48,208 bases of DNA, from contig JABDQW010000023.1 of the NCBI GenBank assembly GCA_013042055.1, positions 1-48,208 on the forward strand, read 5' to 3'. The DNA comes from Gammaproteobacteria bacterium. Lineage in GTDB: Bacteria > Pseudomonadota > Gammaproteobacteria > SZUA-229. Each line of letters begins with the position of its first letter. Position 1 is the first letter of the stretch. The position numbers were made by a program, and so were the translations under genes. The notes below the pieces were generated by a model. That model saw nothing but the letters and a program-made list of their open reading frames with translations, had not been told where the DNA came from and made no database searches. This document shows, piece after piece, positions 20,987-43,590 of this stretch.

Positions 20987-23170
20987 CTAATGTGTCCGAT
21001 GTCGACCGCTGTGCATGCCTCCTGGATTCGCGTCGGGAACGGCATAGGGTTCCTGCATTAACAGTTGAGCGATGACATCGGCTGGCAAGGGTTTACAGAA
21101 CAGAAACCCCTGCGCTTCGTTACAGTCAATTTCCTGCAGATAATCCAATTGCTGCTGGGTTTCAACACCTTCGGCAATAACGTTCAAGTTTAAACCCTTG
21201 CCCATCGCGACGATGGTGTTGATGATAGACTTGCCGGTATGCTTCATGTTCACTTCCTTTATGAAGGTACGGTCTATTTTTAATGTGTGAATTGGTAGTT
21301 TGTGTAAATAGCTCAACGAGGAATAACCGGTACCGAAGTCGTCAATCGCTATATATACGCCTCTTTTACTGATGTTCTTTAGTTTGTGTATGATGCTATC
21401 CATGTCGCTCATAATTGTATTTTCGGTGATTTCGATTTCAAGGCAGTGACCTGGAATACCATTATCCCTGAGAACATTGGAGACGTATTTGATAATGTTT
21501 TTATCGGCAAGCTGACGAGCCGACATATTGATTGACATACGTATCTCTGGAAGACCAGCATCTCGCCATCTTTTCAGTTCAGCGCAGGCGTTGCTCAGCA
21601 CCCAATGGCCGACGTCAACAATCATGCCGGTCTCCTCGGCAAATGGGATAAACTCCGCGGGAGTGATGAGTCCGTGTGCCGGATGATTCCAGCGTAACAG
21701 CGCCTCGACGCCAACGATGTCACCTGACTTGATATTGATTTGCGGTTGATAAACTAGCTGAAATTCATTATTTTCCAGTGCCTTGTGGATGCCTGTTTCC
21801 AGCGAAAGATTCTGGAAATAGGGTGTTGTCATATCAGTGCTGTAGAACTTGAAATTGTTTTTACCTGTATCTTTGACATGATACATGGCGACGTCGGCGT
21901 GTTTGATCAATGTGTCCATATCCTTGCCATCGCGCGGAAATATCGATATGCCAATGCTGGCGCTGACATAAAGTTCGTTACCGTTGATGATGAATGGCCC
22001 TTTTAAGACTTCATTGATTTTTCCGGCAATTTTGCTGATATCTTCCTTGCCATTACCTATTTTTGGAAGCAACAGCGTGAATTCATCACCTCCGAAACGA
22101 GCAAGCGTATCACCTTCTCTAATACAGCTTTTCAAGCGTGTGCTGACTTGTTGTAGCAATTCATCACCAATAACATGACCCAGCGAATCGTTTATATTCT
22201 TGAAGCGGTCAAGATCAAGAAACATCACGGCCAGCATCTCCTGTTCACGTTTTGCTTGTGAAATCGCGAGACCAAGGCGGTCTCTTAACAGGGCGCGGTT
22301 CGGCAGGTTGGTCAGCAGATCATGATGTGCTTGAAAGTTGATGGTTTCCTCGGCGATCTTGCGCTCAGTGATATCGCGCGCTACGCCGTAAGTGCCTGCG
22401 TAGCTTTTTTTTCTCGAATCGCTCTCACTTGTATACATGCCCACAGAACTGAGTTCAACGGGTAGTGTGCGCGTATCAAAAATATGTTGTGAGCTTTCGT
22501 CTTTGTATTTCAAGCGTATCTCGACGTTACGCGATGCGCGCTCACCAACACGTCGTTCATTGAAGATATAGCGGGCAGCCTCGAGATCTGTTTGGTATAC
22601 CAGGTATGAATAGTGTTTTCCGATGAGTTCCTTGGGGTTATAACCCAACAGTGTTTCAATACGGTCGTTAATGAAAGTGAAATGCCCGTCGCGGTCGAGC
22701 ATATAAATGATGTCGGGCGAGGTATTGACTAAATATCGGTGAAGGCGCTCGGACTCACGTAATTGATCTTGTATTAGTGTGTTTTGTTTTTGCAGATGGA
22801 TTTCATTTAGCGCATTGTTGATTGTAATGATCAATTCGTCAGTGGCATACGGTTTGCGCAAAAAATCATAAGCGCCCTGTGAGCAGGCGTCTCTGGCTGC
22901 TTCGAAAGATGTCTCGCCACTAACGACAATGACGGATGCGCTCATCTGCTCTTGTTTGATGTGACGCATCACGTCATGGCCATTGACATAAGGCATTTGC
23001 AGATCCAGCAACACCAGGTCGTATTCTTTCTGGTCAAGGCAGACGATGGCTTCACGACCGCCGATAGCCGTATCGGCATCAATGCCACGTAAAGCGAGCA
23101 GGTCTCTCAGGCTCTTTAGTACTATGGGGTCGTCGTCGACGATGAGGATATTCTGTTCATTATGGCTCAT
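20987..23170 (-). CDS. REC-PAS-GGDEF-EAL c-di-GMP response regulator
   Basis: ILIVDDD...LLDLQMP receiver; PAS domain; REGD I-site five residues before an intact GGDEF; VEALLRW, DDFGTGYSS and EGVE in the EAL domain. Confidence 0.93.
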   Translation of the reverse strand: MSHNEQNILIVDDDPIVLKSLRDLLALRGIDADTAIGGREAIVCLDQKEYDLVLLDLQMPYVNGHDVMRHIKQEQMSASVIVVSGETSFEAARDACSQGAYDFLRKPYATDELIITINNALNEIHLQKQNTLIQDQLRESERLHRYLVNTSPDIIYMLDRDGHFTFINDRIETLLGYNPKELIGKHYSYLVYQTDLEAARYIFNERRVGERASRNVEIRLKYKDESSQHIFDTRTLPVELSSVGMYTSESDSRKKSYAGTYGVARDITERKIAEETINFQAHHDLLTNLPNRALLRDRLGLAISQAKREQEMLAVMFLDLDRFKNINDSLGHVIGDELLQQVSTRLKSCIREGDTLARFGGDEFTLLLPKIGNGKEDISKIAGKINEVLKGPFIINGNELYVSASIGISIFPRDGKDMDTLIKHADVAMYHVKDTGKNNFKFYSTDMTTPYFQNLSLETGIHKALENNEFQLVYQPQINIKSGDIVGVEALLRWNHPAHGLITPAEFIPFAEETGMIVDVGHWVLSNACAELKRWRDAGLPEIRMSINMSARQLADKNIIKYVSNVLRDNGIPGHCLEIEITENTIMSDMDSIIHKLKNISKRGVYIAIDDFGTGYSSLSYLHKLPIHTLKIDRTFIKEVNMKHTGKSIINTIVAMGKGLNLNVIAEGVETQQQLDYLQEIDCNEAQGFLFCKPLPADVIAQLLMQEPYAVPDANPGGMHSGRHRTH

Positions 23171-23246
23171 TTTCTCTTTACTCTATGGTGCAGTGCGCCC
23201 CAGTCTTTCGCGTTCTCTATTGATCAGCAAATACCAGGATAAGCGC

Positions 23247-25376
23247 TTATTCTTGTATATTTCGTGGCAGTAGTATGTGAAAACTCGTGCCTTTATCGCT
23301 GCTCCTGCAGCTGATAGAGCCGTGTAGTTCATTCACAAGATTTTTTACGATTGTAAGCCCCAAACCTGCATGTCCCTCACCTTTTGTTGTTGTTACTGGT
23401 GAGAACAGATCAGGTAAAATCTTGGCTGGAATACCCGGCCCGTCGTCGGCAACACAGATCTCAAAGTGTGCTTTTCCATCGACGTTTACCTGGTCTTGAG
23501 TGTAGACCATAATCTGGCCCTCTGCAGGAAGTGCCTCAACTGCATTTTTTACCAGGTTCGTATAGATCTGTTTTATCGCGTCCGCGTTGGTCGAGATCGG
23601 CGGCATACTTTCATCGAGATTGAGACTGATATCAATGTCATGCGCACCGAACAGGGACGTCTGAAACATGTGCGATAAGTCAGCGATCAGCCCATTGACA
23701 TCAACCGGAACGCTCTCGCTAATATCGGCCTCAACCGAGATGGGCTGCGCGAGATTTTCAAGCATCGTACTGATGCGCTGGATCTCGGCGCGGATAGTTG
23801 CCAGATCCTGTTGCGCTGGGTCATCACCTTCGAGCTGGATGCCAAGTATTTCCAGGTAGTTGTTGATGATAGTCAGAGGGTTACGTACCTCGTGTATGAC
23901 TTCTCTGGCGCGGGCTTTGAGGAATTTTTCCGGGTCGATTCCCATGTGATCCTCGCGCTGGTTACGAAATTCGGCAAGTGAGGTACTGATGGTGCGCGCT
24001 ATCTCATTAGCAAAGCGTTTTAACAACCCTTGTTGGTTCGATAACGCGGGTAATTGTGCTTCATCGATTCCCAGCAGCAACGTCCCTATTGCGGCGTTGT
24101 GTACGATTAGTGGCATGCAAAACAAACCTTCCTTATTGTTCAGGTCGATCAACTGGCAATCGAGAATGGAGAGATTGTCCGGGTCTTTATTGAATGAATG
24201 AATAGCGCGCATTTCCAGCAGAGCATCAGTCACAATGCTGCGACCCGGTTCGAGCGGTATGCTAATGTGTTGCAAGTGGGGATCGTTTTCAGTCGTCGAC
24301 GTTGCTTGAATCTTGTCATCAGCGGCGTCGTACAGGAAAAGTATACAGTCATTGATCCCGAATAAGACTGCTATATTCTGCTGTAGTGCTTTCAATAGGG
24401 CGCGTTTGCCGTCGATGCGTGAGAAGTGTTGGTGAACGCCGTCAAGCATCGCGATATCGCGAATTTGCTCGGCCAGCTTGACCTGCTTCAACTGGTCAGT
24501 GGACATGATTTTGTCGATGGTTTCGTTATCGATGTTAATATCGCGTGTTGCGATCCCGAACTTTTCGGCGATTTTTCCGATTTTCTCGTCGCAATTAGCC
24601 CGTATCTTCTCTATCAAGTCTGCAGGAAGTCCAAATAACTGTCGCGCGGCATTGTGTGCTTGCTCGGTATTGTCTCTATAGTTGTCATGGCTTATCAGGT
24701 TGGCCAGGTTAATGATCTTGACTAATGGATGTGCATCGAGGATTTTAGTGATGGGCTCGTGGTGGTACATGATGGCGTCGGCGAGGAACGGATGGCCATC
24801 GCGTAGTACGAACAGTTGAGCACCAACATGGCAGTGGGTGGTGTCGAGCTGATCGCTTTCCATCGTGTGTACATTTTCGTCTTCATCGACGTGAGTTAAC
24901 TCGGCGGTGTATCTATCCGGGTAGGCAGATTCCATAACCAGCTGACCCGCGTCGTGCAACAGGCCCGCAAACCAGGCTTCGCCGGTATGTTGGTAGTCCG
25001 TGAGTTGAGCGAGCTGCTCTGCAACGCAGCCACAATAGATCGAGTGGCGCCAGTGTCGCTTGAGAAAATCCATGCGCTGCTGGCTGCTGCGTGAAAAAAA
25101 CTGATGAACTGCTGAGGTTATCGCAATGCTTTTGATGGTATTGATACCCAGGCGCGACAGCTGTTTTTCAAGATTTTTCAGGCTTGTGCATTCGTTACCA
25201 CAAGAAGAAATCACCTTCACGCAGAGAGCGGGATCGTTTTGAATGATGTTGGCCAGCTTGTCGAACGACACGTTCTCATCTTGGCAGGTCTCGAGCAGTT
25301 GCACTAGCACGTGCGGCAAGGTAGGCAGTTTATGAATATCTGTCTTCTGAAGTAGTCGTATTGCTTGTTTATGCAT
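23247..25376 (-). CDS. HDOD-GAF-HisKA-HATPase cytoplasmic histidine kinase
   Basis: LPTLP...DPAL...WRHS...AGLLHD (HDOD); IHEVRNPL H-box; NLVKNAVEA, DDGPGI, GLGL. Start taken at MHKQ. Confidence 0.9.
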   Translation of the reverse strand: MHKQAIRLLQKTDIHKLPTLPHVLVQLLETCQDENVSFDKLANIIQNDPALCVKVISSCGNECTSLKNLEKQLSRLGINTIKSIAITSAVHQFFSRSSQQRMDFLKRHWRHSIYCGCVAEQLAQLTDYQHTGEAWFAGLLHDAGQLVMESAYPDRYTAELTHVDEDENVHTMESDQLDTTHCHVGAQLFVLRDGHPFLADAIMYHHEPITKILDAHPLVKIINLANLISHDNYRDNTEQAHNAARQLFGLPADLIEKIRANCDEKIGKIAEKFGIATRDINIDNETIDKIMSTDQLKQVKLAEQIRDIAMLDGVHQHFSRIDGKRALLKALQQNIAVLFGINDCILFLYDAADDKIQATSTTENDPHLQHISIPLEPGRSIVTDALLEMRAIHSFNKDPDNLSILDCQLIDLNNKEGLFCMPLIVHNAAIGTLLLGIDEAQLPALSNQQGLLKRFANEIARTISTSLAEFRNQREDHMGIDPEKFLKARAREVIHEVRNPLTIINNYLEILGIQLEGDDPAQQDLATIRAEIQRISTMLENLAQPISVEADISESVPVDVNGLIADLSHMFQTSLFGAHDIDISLNLDESMPPISTNADAIKQIYTNLVKNAVEALPAEGQIMVYTQDQVNVDGKAHFEICVADDGPGIPAKILPDLFSPVTTTKGEGHAGLGLTIVKNLVNELHGSISCRSSDKGTSFHILLPRNIQE

Positions 25377-25967
25377 CTGGCTGGTGTTTATGTGTTGTCC
25401 AGGTATACCCGGAAAAATGGTTGGTAGGCGAACGATGTGATCATGCGTATCTGATGAGCGCCGGAGATTTACATTTTTACTTTTCGATTTTGAATATGCA
25501 AGAAACATGTAATATTTTGTAAAAAATAAAACCCGATGGCTTGCAATTTTCTTTAAATTTCAGGCCAGTAGAACTATCAGCCATCGCTACTACCAGGCGA
25601 TGATTGTAATTTTTGATCGCGCTCACTGGCAGCTGATCAATGCCTGGAGCATTGAAATAAGTTGCTTTTGGGCAGAAAATGACGCCTGGCGCGCATGCCG
25701 CGAGAAGGCAGACGCGCACCGCTGTCTGTTTTATTTGATGTTATTTCAGTCAGGTGAAGATAAATCAGCCGGGCTAGCTTGCTGGTAAAATTCAGAGCCT
25801 TCATGCAACATAGGGACTAGCGGTGCCATATTGCGTTAAATCCGGTCGTGTTAATCAATCATAGCAGGCAACGATTGGGCCTGAATATTGGCCAACGACT
25901 GCATTTGTGTTTCGACACGGCGATGAAGATAACATATTTAAACATGCACATAGCGTAGGAGAGCAAA

Positions 25968-27141: not shown

Positions 27142-27217
27142 GTCTGCTAAATTAGAGCATAGTAAAATACTAATTGAGTAGGTTGATGAATATTTTTATT
27201 GGTATCTGGGGGTATCT

Positions 27218-27349
27218 ATGAAAGAGTGGTTAGACTTGTTATTTGGAAATGCCAGTGGTTTGATGAGTATGATTGTCATCTTTGGGACGATTGCAGTTGC
27301 GGCCTTTCTCGTAACAATGCTGGTGGTTAAATCAAGCCAAGAAAAGTAA
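27218..27349 (+). CDS. Small membrane protein, DUF3149-like (43 aa)
   Basis: Manual translation MKEWLDLLFGNASGLMSMIVIFGTIAVAAFLVTMLVVKSSQEK. The WLDLLFGN..GL.SMIVIFG pattern matches DUF3149 as recalled; GGGGG SD-like sequence; absent from the ORF track. Confidence 0.8.
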   Translation: MKEWLDLLFGNASGLMSMIVIFGTIAVAAFLVTMLVVKSSQEK

Positions 27350-27442
27350 GTTTGTTGATATTGGCGAGTGAGAAGTAGCAAGGGAGGGGCTGGCTTATCG
27401 CAATTTGGGTAGAACTTTCTCCCTTGCTGCATTTTCGCTTAT

Positions 27443-27797
27443 TGGTGGGCCTGGAAGGACTCGAACCTTCGACCAATGGATTCACTTGTCCCCGGTATTT
27501 CTATCGGGAGCGGACTATCTCATCACCCTCAGCTGCCCCATTTTTCAGAACCACTGTTAGAGTGCGGGACGCTTGAACCTGTTATTAAGAACACTCGGTA
27601 TCTAAACCAGTTCTCAGGTAGTCTCTGCACCTTCCGGAAGTGTACTCCCGGTTTGGCTCAGGGTTGCCAGCAGTCGAATCTTTACTGAGACTGGCTGTTA
27701 AGGTTTCCCTGAATTCATCCCGTTCATCTCATTTCTTTCGAAATGAGCGCACCTTTTTTGATGAGTCCACTGCTCTAACCAACTGAGCTACAGGCCC
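27443..27797 (-). tRNA. ileX: tRNA-Ile2 (CAU, lysidine type), intron-containing; exons 27797-27761 and 27482-27443
   Basis: Spliced sequence GGGCCTGTAGCTCAGTTGGTTAGAGCAGTGGACTCAT/AATCCATTGGTCGAAGGTTCGAGTCCTTCCAGGCCCACCA forms a full cloverleaf with CCA. G1-C72 argues against fMet; C4-G69 and C5-G68 are TilS determinants; it lies downstream of rpoD. Confidence 0.93.
27483..27760 (-). ncRNA. Group I self-splicing intron (IC3-like), 278 nt, no ORF
   Basis: P1 CAU|C-AAAAAA-GGUG with U.G at the 5' splice site; P2 with GAAA loop; P3 CGGGAU/GUCCCG; P4 UUCAGGG/CCCUGAG; R GUGCAGAGACUA; S AGAUAGUCC; P9 with GAAA loop; terminal omega-G at 27483. Confidence 0.92.
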
Positions 27798-28037
27798 AAA
27801 AGAACATAAAGTCATCGATGTAACGCAGTGTCGTTGATCGCTCTATTTTTATCCTATGCGCTCACATGCGTGATGATAGCGTATTGGACTGAGCGCTAAC
27901 GCGCACGCAACGAATTATATATGAAACTTTTTAGGCAATCATGAAAAATTCGACATTAGGTTTAAATATACGGGCTGCTGTGGGGTATGGCAACACCCGG
28001 AGCCTGATGTCATACTCCGGATGTCGAGCCGTACAGA

Positions 28038-29888
28038 TTAATTGTTGCTGTCATCGCCGAGGAAGCTGCGCAGGTGTTCCGCTCGGCTTGGATGACGCAG
28101 TTTGCGTAGAGCCTTGGCTTCGATCTGACGAATGCGTTCACGCGTCACATCGAATTGCTTGCCGACTTCTTCCAGTGTGTGATCGGTGTTCATGTCGATG
28201 CCGAAACGCATACGCAAGACCTTGGACTCGCGTGCGGTCAACGTCGTCAAGATATCTTTGGTTGATTCACGCAATGACTCGCTGGTGGCGGAGTCGTCAG
28301 GTGACTGGATATTTAGGTCTTCGATGAAGTCGCCCAGATGTGAATCCTCATCATCACCAATAGGCGTTTCCATCGAAATTGGCTCTTTGGCGATTTTTAG
28401 CACCTTGCGTACCTTGTCTTCCGGCATTTCCATTTTTTCGGCCAGTTCTTCCGGTGTAGGTTCACGGCCCATTTCCTGTAGCATTGCTCGGAAGATGCGG
28501 TTCAGTTTGTTGATCGTTTCGATCATGTGGACGGGAATACGGATAGTGCGTGCCTGGTCTGCGATTGAACGCGTGATTGCCTGGCGTATCCACCAGGTCG
28601 CATAAGTTGAGAATTTATAGCCGCGGCGGTATTCGAATTTATCGACGGCTTTCATCAGGCCGATATTGCCTTCCTGAATCAGGTCAAGGAATTGCAAGCC
28701 GCGGTTGGTGTATTTTTTCGCAATCGAAATGACCAATCGCAAGTTGGCTTCGACCATTTCCTTCTTGGCGCGGCGAGCTTTGGCTTCGCCGATCGACATT
28801 TTGCGGTTGATTTCCTTAATTTCGGAGATTCCGAGGCCGTACTCTTTCTCCAATGCAGCGAGTTTTTGCTGTGTCAGCTTGATCTCGGGTGCCACTTCGG
28901 CGAGCGCGGGTGAATATTCGTGGCCCGTGCAGTATTCGTCTATCCAGTCGACATTGGTCTCGTTCTGGGGGAAGGTCGTTATCATGATCTTGCGCGGCAT
29001 ACGTGCACGATTAACAGCCAAATCAAGAACATGGCGTTCCAGCATGCGAACGCGTTCGATCGTTTTGTGCAGATCGATCGTTAATCGAGACACCGTGGGT
29101 GGTGTGTACTTGAATCCAAGGAACGCAGTGGCCATCGCATGACGCGCCTTCAAGACCGCCTCACGATCGCCTTTGGTGATGGTGTTGGCGGTTCGGGTGT
29201 GAGCGCGCCTGATCTTAGAAAACAGCTTTTTTACGTCCTCGGGATCGAGACCGATATCGACGGGTTCGGTTTTTTCGCTGGCTTTTCCAGCAGCGGCAAG
29301 TTTGGCTTCCTTGGCCGCGTTTTCCAGAGCTTCGGCTGCCAGGCGGTCGAGTTCCTCGTCGCTTTTGTGAAAGTCAGCCACCAAGTCGCTGAGTCGGTTG
29401 TCTCCGGCTTCAACGCCATCCCACATGTTTAGGACGGTGGTGACCGTGTGTGGATTGGTTGCCAACGCTTCCAGAACCTGCTTCAGGCCCTCTTCGATAC
29501 GTTTCGCGATCTCGATTTCACCTTCGCGTGTCAGCAGTTCGACGCTGCCCATTTCGCGCATGTACATGCGCACCGGGTCGGTCGTGCGACCAAGCTCGGT
29601 TTCGATCGATGCGAGTGCCGCTACCGCTTCCTCGGTCGTATCGTCATCCGCTTCACTGACTGAACTGTCACTCAGGATCAGCGACTCGCCTTCCGGGGCG
29701 GTTTCGCACACGTTGATGCCCATGTCGTTGATCGTGTTGATGATATCCTCGACCTGGGAGGGGTCCACAATGCCTTCGGGTAGGTGATCATTGACCTCGG
29801 AATAAGTCAGATAACCCTGCTCTTTACCTTTTGCAATAAGCAGTTTTAAGCGTGATTTCTGTTCTTTTTCAGTTACTTGTAATGCCAT
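28038..29888 (-). CDS. rpoD: RNA polymerase primary sigma factor RpoD
   Basis: Region 1.1 [64 protein letters not shown]. Start taken at MALQV. Confidence 0.98.
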
Positions 29889-29965
29889 TTGATTGCTGCC
29901 AAGCGTGAATGCAATTATTAAACCCAATCGAAAATTTTAACATTTATCGTTCATGAGATCCATCT

Positions 29966-42837: not shown

Positions 42838-43590
42838 ATGACAACAAAGCAATCCGAGTCGGACCGTGATGGCATAAAAAACGTCAGCGTCGTCACACAC
42901 GTCAGCTTCGAGAACCTGGGGAGCTTCGAACAAATCCTCAGAGAAGCTGGATACACGATCAACTATATCAGTGCCAGCAGTGGGGGCTTGACCGAAATCC
43001 GGCCGCAATCGGATGACTTGCTGATCATTCTAGGCGGACCGATCAGCGTCAATGATGTCGATGCGTATCCGTTTCTGCGAGCCGAACTCGAGCTGCTCAA
43101 TGAGCGCTTGTCTGTAAATAAGCCAACCCTGGGCATTTGTTTGGGCGCCCAGTTGATTGCCAAGGCGCTGGGGGCAGCGGTGTATCCCGGTTCCGTGAAG
43201 GAAATCGGTTGGTCGCCGATTCAGTTGAGCGATGGTGGTAGCCGCTCTGCGCTGCGACATCTCGTCGGTGAAGATGTCTGTGTGTTGCACTGGCATGGCG
43301 AAACTTTCGATCTGCCCGATGATGCTGGACTGTTGGCATCCAGCCAAAGCTATCCTCACCAGGCATTCGACTACGGCAATACGCTGGCCTTGCAGTTTCA
43401 TCCGGAAGTGACGCAACGCGGGCTCGAACCGTGGTTTGTCGGCCATGCCGTCGAAATTCAACAGACCGACGGTATCTCCGTGTCCCAACTGCGTGCTGAC
43501 AGCGCGCGTTATGCCGATACTCTACAGGCACGTGGCTACCGCTTTCTGCTGGAATGGCTCGACGATGTGTCCGAACAAGCCTCCGCGTGA
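42838..43590 (+). CDS. Class I glutamine amidotransferase (GMP-synthase-like, stand-alone)
   Basis: LIILGGP, LGICLGAQ nucleophile elbow, HWHGETF, LQFHPE. Confidence 0.92.
   Translation: MTTKQSESDRDGIKNVSVVTHVSFENLGSFEQILREAGYTINYISASSGGLTEIRPQSDDLLIILGGPISVNDVDAYPFLRAELELLNERLSVNKPTLGICLGAQLIAKALGAAVYPGSVKEIGWSPIQLSDGGSRSALRHLVGEDVCVLHWHGETFDLPDDAGLLASSQSYPHQAFDYGNTLALQFHPEVTQRGLEPWFVGHAVEIQQTDGISVSQLRADSARYADTLQARGYRFLLEWLDDVSEQASA

Follow-up and report, generated by a model that had tools for sequence, protein, structure and literature searches.

A group I intron beside the anticodon of a gammaproteobacterial tRNA-Ile2(CAU) gene: host, structure and relatives

Introduction

On the minus strand of a 48,208-nt stretch of DNA from a gammaproteobacterial genome assembly (the whole stretch is called the window here) lies a tRNA gene that is split directly after its CAU anticodon by an insert of 278 nt. 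The locus raises the question of whether this insert is an intron that leaves a usable tRNA behind and, if it is, which tRNA is concerned and whether the cell depends on its removal. The answer to which our analyses lead, and which on sequence comparison we regard as very probably correct, is that an uncultured gammaproteobacterium has a tRNA-Ile2 gene (CAU, made specific for AUA by lysidine) into which, between nucleotides 36 and 37, a compact, ORF-less group I intron of 278 nt is inserted, of the Ile2.5Ug type and IC3-like in its subgroup.

Boundaries of the intron and detection of the gene

The gene occupies 27797..27443 (minus strand) and comes to 77 nt without the insert. Its 5' exon of 37 nt (27761..27797, minus) comprises the acceptor strand, the D arm, the 5' side of the anticodon stem and CU plus CAU, ending in GUGGA-CU-CAU. 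The 3' exon of 40 nt (27443..27482, minus) starts with AA-UCCAU (AAUCC) and continues through the 3' side of the anticodon stem, the variable loop, the T arm and the acceptor strand to a terminal ACCA, the last three letters being CCA. Between them, the intron (27483..27760, minus) begins with C and ends in GUG, with the omega-G at 27483, and contains no ORF on its own strand. A preliminary description of this DNA had reported a 278-nt insert after CAU with an internal guide sequence (IGS) GGUG, core motifs and a terminal G, and all of these were found in their places, on the minus strand, which had been left unstated. The proposal that a group I covariance model would match was also borne out. 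The Rfam family Intron_gpI (RF00028) covers 27772..27491 (minus), from position 1 to 253 of its 253 model positions, with 78.8 bits (E 1.8e-18) against a gathering score of 50. This is the sole Rfam family match in the 48-kb window and the only group I match in the 3.5-Mb assembly.

Detection with a tRNA caller was less straightforward. The default settings of ARAGORN yield no tRNA for the window. Once introns are permitted, the program recovers the gene with its 278-nt intron, but sets the intron 2 nt too far towards the 5' side and names the gene tRNA-Gln(CUG). The earlier expectation that standard callers may miss the gene therefore held. Within 4 nt of the ARAGORN register, one alone has a U before the 5' splice site together with a G ending the intron, and it gives the anticodon loop CU-CAU-AA. 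The names that ARAGORN gave, Gln(CUG) in the window and Arg, Ser and others in relatives, were dropped in favour of this U(-1)/omega-G register. As default callers miss or misname the gene, genomes from this and many further gammaproteobacterial groups will seem to be without an AUA decoder, and wrong inferences on completeness or codon capacity follow.

Using the 355-nt stretch as query, we searched 41 genomes, namely that of the window (G000) and 40 relatives. Full-length, intron-bearing matches were obtained in six of them: G000 itself, G001 (90%) and G002 (85%) of the same genus, and, from other families in the class, G026 (75%), G030 (73%) and G038 (66%). In G010, G005 and G007 of the same genus and in G012 of the same family, query nucleotides 1-37 and 316-355 adjoin with nothing between them and with 100% identity, the two exons thus matching nucleotides 1-37 and 38-77 of these intronless alleles. 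Because the exon halves abut there (CAT|AA), the intron is exactly query nucleotides 38-315, and its insertion after the third anticodon base, as first described, is confirmed. The intronless alleles read CUCAUAA, and the CAU register is therefore the correct one. Over the 11 genomes of the genus, G000 included, the intron is present in three and abutting halves are found in five (G003, G005, G007, G009, G010); G004, G006 and G008 (completeness 93, 84 and 69) have partial matches only. This presence/absence polymorphism at an orthologous locus within one genus is possible material for work on intron loss and on the function of peripheral elements.

A fragmented, metagenome-type assembly might in principle join a foreign intron to the halves of a tRNA gene, and one intron-bearing locus of the scan presented below, on a 2-kb contig, does carry an improbable phylum label. 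Against such an assembly or binning artefact, the same arrangement with rpoD and DUF3149 neighbours recurs in G002 and, within a contig of 745 kb, in G001, and contigs with 99-100% identity span both splice junctions in independent public sequencing runs. The stretch or part of it is contained in 20 listed runs from 12 studies, eight of the runs being recorded as RNA. We consider that an artefact is scarcely credible, and the intron is taken as a genuine part of the gene in what follows. The gammaproteobacterial context of the original description also stands, given that a record 100% identical to the locus of G002 is labelled Gammaproteobacteria.

Identity of the host tRNA and genomic setting

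A CAU anticodon alone cannot distinguish tRNA-Met from tRNA-Ile2, and the host could then be an elongator tRNA-Met or, following the ARAGORN call, a tRNA-Gln(CUG) whose intron would be placed two bases nearer the 5' end. Overall similarity is of limited help here: the best match of the intronless allele to an annotated tRNA-Ile of E. coli has 81.8% identity and a rare E. coli tRNA-Lys variant is slightly above it at 83.1%, so that overall identity alone cannot settle the host. The single E. coli tRNA-Ile match for which the annotated region was inspected lies away from rpoD.

Individual positions are more telling. The spliced tRNA would carry C4-G69, C5-G68, G27.U43, G30-C40 and U44. According to the portion of PMC2500205 that we drew upon, C4-G69 and C5-G68 of E. 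coli tRNA-Ile2 are positively recognised by TilS and G27.U43 blocks the Met-specific acetylase (TmcA), whereas elongator tRNA-Met has U4-A69, A5-U68, C27-G43 and G44. The other CAU tRNA of G000 (contig C174) has U4, A5 and C27-G43, as in elongator Met. Distinct tRNAs are present for Gln(CUG), Gln(UUG) and elongator Met, and in G001 for the initiator as well. The Gln register, in addition, has C and not U before the 5' splice site, and it conflicts with the sequence of the intronless alleles.

The setting of the gene is in agreement. The sigma-70 gene rpoD (28038..29927, minus; Pfam Sigma70 regions 1.1 to 4) lies 240 nt upstream of the tRNA on the same strand, and it is found just upstream of the tRNA in nine of the 11 loci of relatives, intron-bearing and intronless alike; a small DUF3149 gene is downstream of the tRNA in five of the 11. 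The tRNA locus is therefore orthologous across the relatives, with or without the intron. In E. coli K-12, ileX, an annotated tRNA-Ile(CAU), is located downstream of rpoD on the same strand, and the gene of the window occupies the corresponding position. The TilS determinants, this ileX-like position and the separate elongator and initiator Met tRNAs in the genus together point to tRNA-Ile2 as the host, in agreement with the preliminary description, and we judge a Met or Gln host to be highly improbable.

Other features of the neighbourhood can be mentioned briefly. The DUF3149 gene of the window (27218-27349, plus; Pfam E 3e-13) encodes a membrane peptide of 43 aa, below the 60-aa limit of the ORF list, and converges on the 3' end of the tRNA. 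Downstream of the tRNA region, 20987-25508 (minus) encodes two ordinary signalling proteins, one of the response-regulator/PAS/GGDEF/EAL type and the other an HDOD/GAF histidine kinase, which have no evident tie to the tRNA intron. The ORF overlapping the intron on the plus strand (27476-27688, 70 aa) has only a sub-threshold Pfam match (16.8 bits against a cut-off of 25) and the nearby ORF 27196-27432 (minus, 78 aa) has no Pfam match. A homing endonuclease was considered for the ORFs overlapping the intron and discarded for want of a Pfam match above the cut-off. The promoter and terminator scan of 27150-28150 found no terminator-like site and two promoter-like sites against 1.5 expected, a number near chance; one of the two lies between rpoD and the tRNA on the minus strand (27993..27965, 10 of 12 matches). 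When introns are permitted, a further ARAGORN call, a tRNA-Asn(GUU) interrupted by 14 nt, falls at 43408-43495 (minus). Its acceptor and D stems are mismatched, no Rfam tRNA match was obtained at that position, and the call is probably a false positive.

Structure of the intron

The structure was examined in an alignment of the window copy and 60 other Ile2-hosted introns with 12 nt of exon on each side (61 sequences). The counted structure was named from the window sequence itself. Standard pairs fill 95.4% of 4136 cells, against 36.9-46.2% when the 3' partners are slid by one to three columns, a comparison in which a structure derived from one of the aligned sequences is favoured over its slid versions. 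Changes on both sides occur in 38 of the 70 pairs, and none of 500 shuffles reaches any of five measures. The size of the compensatory signal in P2, P6a, P8 and P9 is not accounted for by the origin of the structure in one sequence.

P1 (27750..27763, minus) is formed by the exon CAU and the first intron base C (27763..27760) with the IGS GGUG (27753..27750), leaving a U.G pair at the 5' splice site. Its pairs CG, AU and UG are the same in 61 of 61 sequences and the fourth covaries (CG in 55, AU in 6). The omega-G, G290 of the aligned stretch, is an invariant column; the U(-1).G pair and terminal G first noticed in the single sequence extend to the whole alignment. P2 (27728..27747, minus) is a hairpin with a GAAA loop in which all eight pairs show changes on both sides, with compensatory changes even within the genus (G000, G001, G002).

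In the core, the 5' strand of P3 (27716..27722, minus) pairs with its 3' strand (27571..27565, minus), 97.5% of cells being paired and three of seven pairs compensatory. The P4-P5-P5a domain (27658..27712, minus) has helices that are 99.5% and 100% paired, P4 being at 99.5%; in our reading the register of distal P5a is ambiguous in the window copy. In P6-P6a (27629..27657, minus), P6 is invariant, and P6a is 96.2% paired with five of six pairs compensatory. The 5' strand of P7 (27619..27625, minus), the guanosine-binding helix with its bulged A, pairs with the 3' strand AUAGUC... (27517..27512, minus). Each of the six P7 pairs is the same throughout the 61 sequences and 100% paired, which is conservation and not covariation and is hence silent on the pairing. 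P8 (27524..27564, minus), in which a basal CNC:GGG helix is followed by an asymmetric UAA loop, is 87.9% paired with four of six pairs compensatory, and the P9 hairpin (27491..27508, minus), with a GAAA loop, is 84.3% paired with six of seven pairs compensatory and one A.C mismatch in the window copy. The predicted group I core with a P3/P7 pseudoknot is thus supported by compensatory changes in P3, P4, P6a and P8. The window copy retains every core position that is invariant across the 61 aligned sequences.

Inspection by eye gave no convincing P10 pairing of the 3' exon with the guide region. The anticodon stem, inside which the intron lies, is 100% paired, with GC, UA, AU and CG all occurring as its second pair, and it is taken to align the exons in place of P10. 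The subgroup appears to be IC3-like. Support for this is indirect and comes from a core that can be aligned with the short tRNA-Ile introns, from the class of Williams 2020 to which the intron belongs, and from P8, whose CNC:GGG helix and asymmetric loop in our reading resemble the IC3 GNRA-receptor motif described in PMC2275092.

An additional hairpin between P7 and P3

The window intron has an extra hairpin of 41 nt (27578..27618, minus), placed after the 5' strand of P7 and before the 3' strand of P3. It consists of an outer helix of 4 bp, an inner helix of 5 bp, a 6-nt bulge on the 3' side (UAAUAA in the window) and a variable distal tip or extension; across the introns the bulge is mostly UAAUNA or UGAUNA. 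The hairpin is present in 55 of the 61 aligned introns, where its helices are 100% and 97.8% paired with four of four and three of five pairs compensatory. The six introns that have no such hairpin are all of about 204 nt; five are labelled Betaproteobacteria (Neisseriaceae, Propionivibrio, Rubrivivax, Pseudoduganella, Sterolibacterium) and one "Proteobacteria" only. Using a stricter pattern test on the scan matches listed, the hairpin was found in 50 of 57 Ile2-hosted loci. Among the matches listed, 11 of 63 other loci pass the helix test and only three of these have a UAAUNA-type bulge (L097, L120 and L007), none of the three being Leu(UAA)-hosted.

The hairpin with its UAAUNA bulge may be a peripheral brace of the P3-P8 domain. 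In the literature that we searched, which did not extend to subscription journals and so is not proof of absence, no description was found of a hairpin between P7 and P3' or of gammaproteobacterial tRNA-Ile introns. The hairpin-bearing architecture, with its dominance among the gammaproteobacterial copies sampled, is the sole aspect of this intron that may be undescribed.

A probable requirement for splicing

The preliminary description had reasoned that self-splicing would be essential if this gene were the only AUA-decoding tRNA, and had proposed a count of other tRNA-Ile2 copies. The assembly G000 is 92% complete, in 312 contigs with 27 uninterrupted tRNAs (ARAGORN), and its missing part may hold another Ile2 gene that lacks the intron; the absence of a second Ile2 copy was therefore judged in G001, a member of the same genus that is 99% complete in 10 contigs. 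All 39 Rfam tRNA matches of G001, which are uninterrupted, were typed. Only two have a CAU anticodon, one elongator Met and one initiator, and none of the 39 is a UAU tRNA. The sole Ile2 candidate in G001 is the intron-bearing gene. TilS is encoded in G000 (173.5 bits against a cut-off of 93.6), and the share of ATA among the Ile codons of 759 long ORFs is 14.7% (9.3 per 1000), with four ATA codons in rpoD itself. Because the Ile2 gene is the sole one in the congener, TilS is present and AUA is this frequent, splicing is probably required for AUA decoding and probably essential; the conditional argument is thus supported for G001 and extends by inference to the fragmentary G000. This would be a further case in which translation of a sense codon, here about 15% of Ile codons, appears to depend on RNA self-splicing.

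From the conserved structure, the pathway can be proposed as follows. The gene would be transcribed downstream of rpoD and the intron would fold into P1-P9 with the P3/P7 pseudoknot, the IGS GGUG pairing with the exon CAU so that U36 is held in the U.G wobble. Free guanosine bound in the invariant P7 pocket would attack after U36, and the terminal G (27483) would then enter the same pocket. The exons, held by the anticodon stem of the tRNA itself, would be ligated to give CU-CAU-AA, and TilS would then convert C34 to lysidine.

Contigs from four metatranscriptome runs (X1, X8 and X10 of one study and X17 of another) were compared with the window over 27350-27900. They cover exons and intron in unspliced form, with mismatch-free pieces spanning each splice junction, and DNA may be present in libraries of this kind. 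Over that interval these contigs gave no reported joint across the intron, which says nothing for or against splicing, and contig depth in the RNA runs cannot rank exons against intron. Loose ends at 27482 and 27761, which look like a spliced junction, are on pieces with two or three mismatches and were read as tRNAs of other organisms.

The insertion might alternatively be decayed and unable to splice, the gene being a pseudogene and AUA being read by another tRNA that is missing from the assembly. The fragmentary state of G000, with its few uninterrupted tRNAs, the lack of a spliced joint in the RNA contigs and the A.C mismatch in P9 would all be compatible with decay. A decayed insertion would not be expected to retain every invariant core position or to show compensatory changes within the genus, nor a dead gene to keep exons 100% identical to the intronless alleles of its congeners, and the near-complete G001 has no other Ile2 tRNA or UAU tRNA to take over. 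We therefore think decay very unlikely, and the RNA of the window locus presumably does splice.

Distribution and descent

A collection of genomes from 185,579 species was scanned with a three-block core pattern built from the first six copies, and at least 119 loci were matched. At least 57 of the 119 matches listed are of the Ile2.5Ug type, CAU-hosted with the intron after loop position 5; these figures are what is left of 63 among 125 after the removal of five loci from genomes already searched and one false match (L026). The pattern was built from this intron lineage; the proportions among the matches listed are therefore biased and the counts are lower bounds. The labels of the 57 or more loci listed are Gammaproteobacteria or its families for 44, Betaproteobacteria for nine, "Proteobacteria" or "Pseudomonadota" only for three and Verrucomicrobiales for one. 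Labels were taken from record titles, with six lineages checked; the tree output gave family names for many rows and the phylum for scan rows, and the remaining carrier families are presumed to belong to the classes in which we placed them. The preliminary description had regarded bacterial tRNA group I introns as known mostly from cyanobacteria and a few alpha- and betaproteobacteria. This is out of date, with at least 44 of the 57 listed Ile2.5Ug loci labelled as gammaproteobacterial, and the rarity that it implied is unsupported, the same class being found in at least 57 loci among the matches listed. Named isolates are among the carriers (Lysobacter daejeonensis, Luteimonas aestuarii, two Rhodanobacter species, Dyella mobilis and a Granulosicoccus), and the hairpin-bearing lineage thus has cultured carriers that could serve as study material.

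A quick maximum-likelihood tree was calculated from the 61 sequences (266 columns, 24 of them exon columns) and rooted at the midpoint, with a warning for long branches. Subject to that root and that warning, its deepest split sets the 55 introns with the hairpin apart from the six short ones, with SH-aLRT 100 on both sides. The hairpin group clusters largely by host family (Lysobacteraceae/Rhodanobacteraceae, most Woeseiaceae-labelled copies, K189A and several Steroidobacteraceae groups), and the three copies of the genus of the window form a clade with support 91. This pattern would fit mostly vertical descent with losses.

Several loci merit separate mention. The Ile2 intron of L085, a 2-kb contig labelled Verrucomicrobiales, nests among Woeseiaceae introns in the tree, and the contig is probably mis-binned. 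The same core pattern also matches introns assigned by ARAGORN to tRNA-Asn(GUU), at a site following loop position 4, in L017 and L078 (DPANN archaea labels) and in L025, L029, L061, L068, L084 and L089 (labels of Patescibacteria type and others). Williams 2020 (bioRxiv 10.1101/2020.01.27.920355) suspected mis-binning in a comparable "Pacearchaeota" case.

In G038, the locus L007:1501-1814 (minus) carries an intron of the hairpin lineage (Rfam 78.8 bits, 66% identity to the stretch of the window) after loop position 5 of a tRNA with the anticodon CUU, within a Pro-Arg-His-Lys tRNA cluster resembling contig C81 of G000. By eye, the guide sequence UGAG of this intron fits CUU plus G, one of the pairs being a U.G wobble. 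An uninterrupted CAU tRNA (L165) is present in G038 as well, and the anticodon arms of tRNA-Ile2 and tRNA-Lys differ by one base. L007 suggests that the intron has moved between tRNA-Ile2 and tRNA-Lys genes.

A second contig of G026 (L164:~620-796, plus) has only the 3' part of an intron (P3' strand, P8, P7' strand, P9 and omega-G) with the 3' exon, 86% identical to that of the window and joined to unrelated AT-rich DNA, with no Rfam match at the gathering score. The same genome carries a complete intron-bearing gene (L005). The L164 copy could be a duplicated target left by an element that integrated into the tRNA gene.

These observations can be joined in a wider reading, which we offer tentatively and would not be surprised to see fail. 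In it, the covarying hairpin with its UAAUNA bulge would define a distinct and possibly undescribed intron lineage, the dominant gammaproteobacterial form in our sample, inherited largely along host lines with repeated loss. At least once the intron would have moved from tRNA-Ile2(CAU) into tRNA-Lys(CUU), whose anticodon arm is nearly the same, and its guide would have changed to match (G038), and the 205-nt Azoarcus form would be a minority, stripped-down relative.

Comparison with known tRNA introns

The finding leaves the current understanding of group I introns unchanged. Its place is best seen against the survey of Williams 2020 (bioRxiv 10.1101/2020.01.27.920355), which mapped 5292 such introns in about 80,000 genomes and recognises four classical settings of bacterial tRNA introns, each of them reported as IC3, with Ile2.5Ug among the four. 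The window intron has the features of that class, namely insertion after anticodon-loop position 5 (nucleotides 36/37) of tRNA-Ile2, U at -1 and G at omega, and it shows the same ARAGORN mis-registration that the survey describes. It is a new member of this classical and widespread class, and not a rare one. A 2014 review, in the part on hosts that we consulted, names only cyanobacteria and alpha- and betaproteobacteria (PMC4033280), in agreement with the background given in the preliminary description.

The Azoarcus tRNA-Ile intron, known here by description, is among the closest published counterparts. The two share the host tRNA, the anticodon loop, a 40-nt 3' exon, a P1 on CAU with its U.G pair, and GAAA loops in L2 and L9, whereas the window intron is 278 nt long and that of Azoarcus 205 nt by its published length (in the part of PMC13168695 used here, which describes a construct with a 40-nt 3' exon). 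The P3-P8 core of the window can be aligned with the six introns of about 204 nt, five of them labelled as betaproteobacterial, whose length is close to the 205 nt of Azoarcus. Compared with this short form, the window intron has the extra 41-nt hairpin between P7 and P3' and longer P5 and P8, and its first base is C, which pairs with the IGS, where the short form has A. The six short introns are taken by us to be Azoarcus-like in sequence.

The tRNA-Leu(UAA) intron of cyanobacteria and plastids (Leu.3Ug) is likewise a compact, ORF-less intron of group I within the anticodon loop of a tRNA, but it follows loop position 3 and interrupts another host tRNA. Related Leu(UAA)-hosted introns of alpha- and betaproteobacteria are matched by the same core pattern, and the UAAUNA-bulge hairpin is in none of the Leu-hosted loci among the scan matches listed. 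In subgroup IA introns, for example td of phage T4, the peripheral helices P7.1/P7.2 sit between P7 and P3'. The hairpin of the window has only this position in common with them, the subgroup and the core being different.
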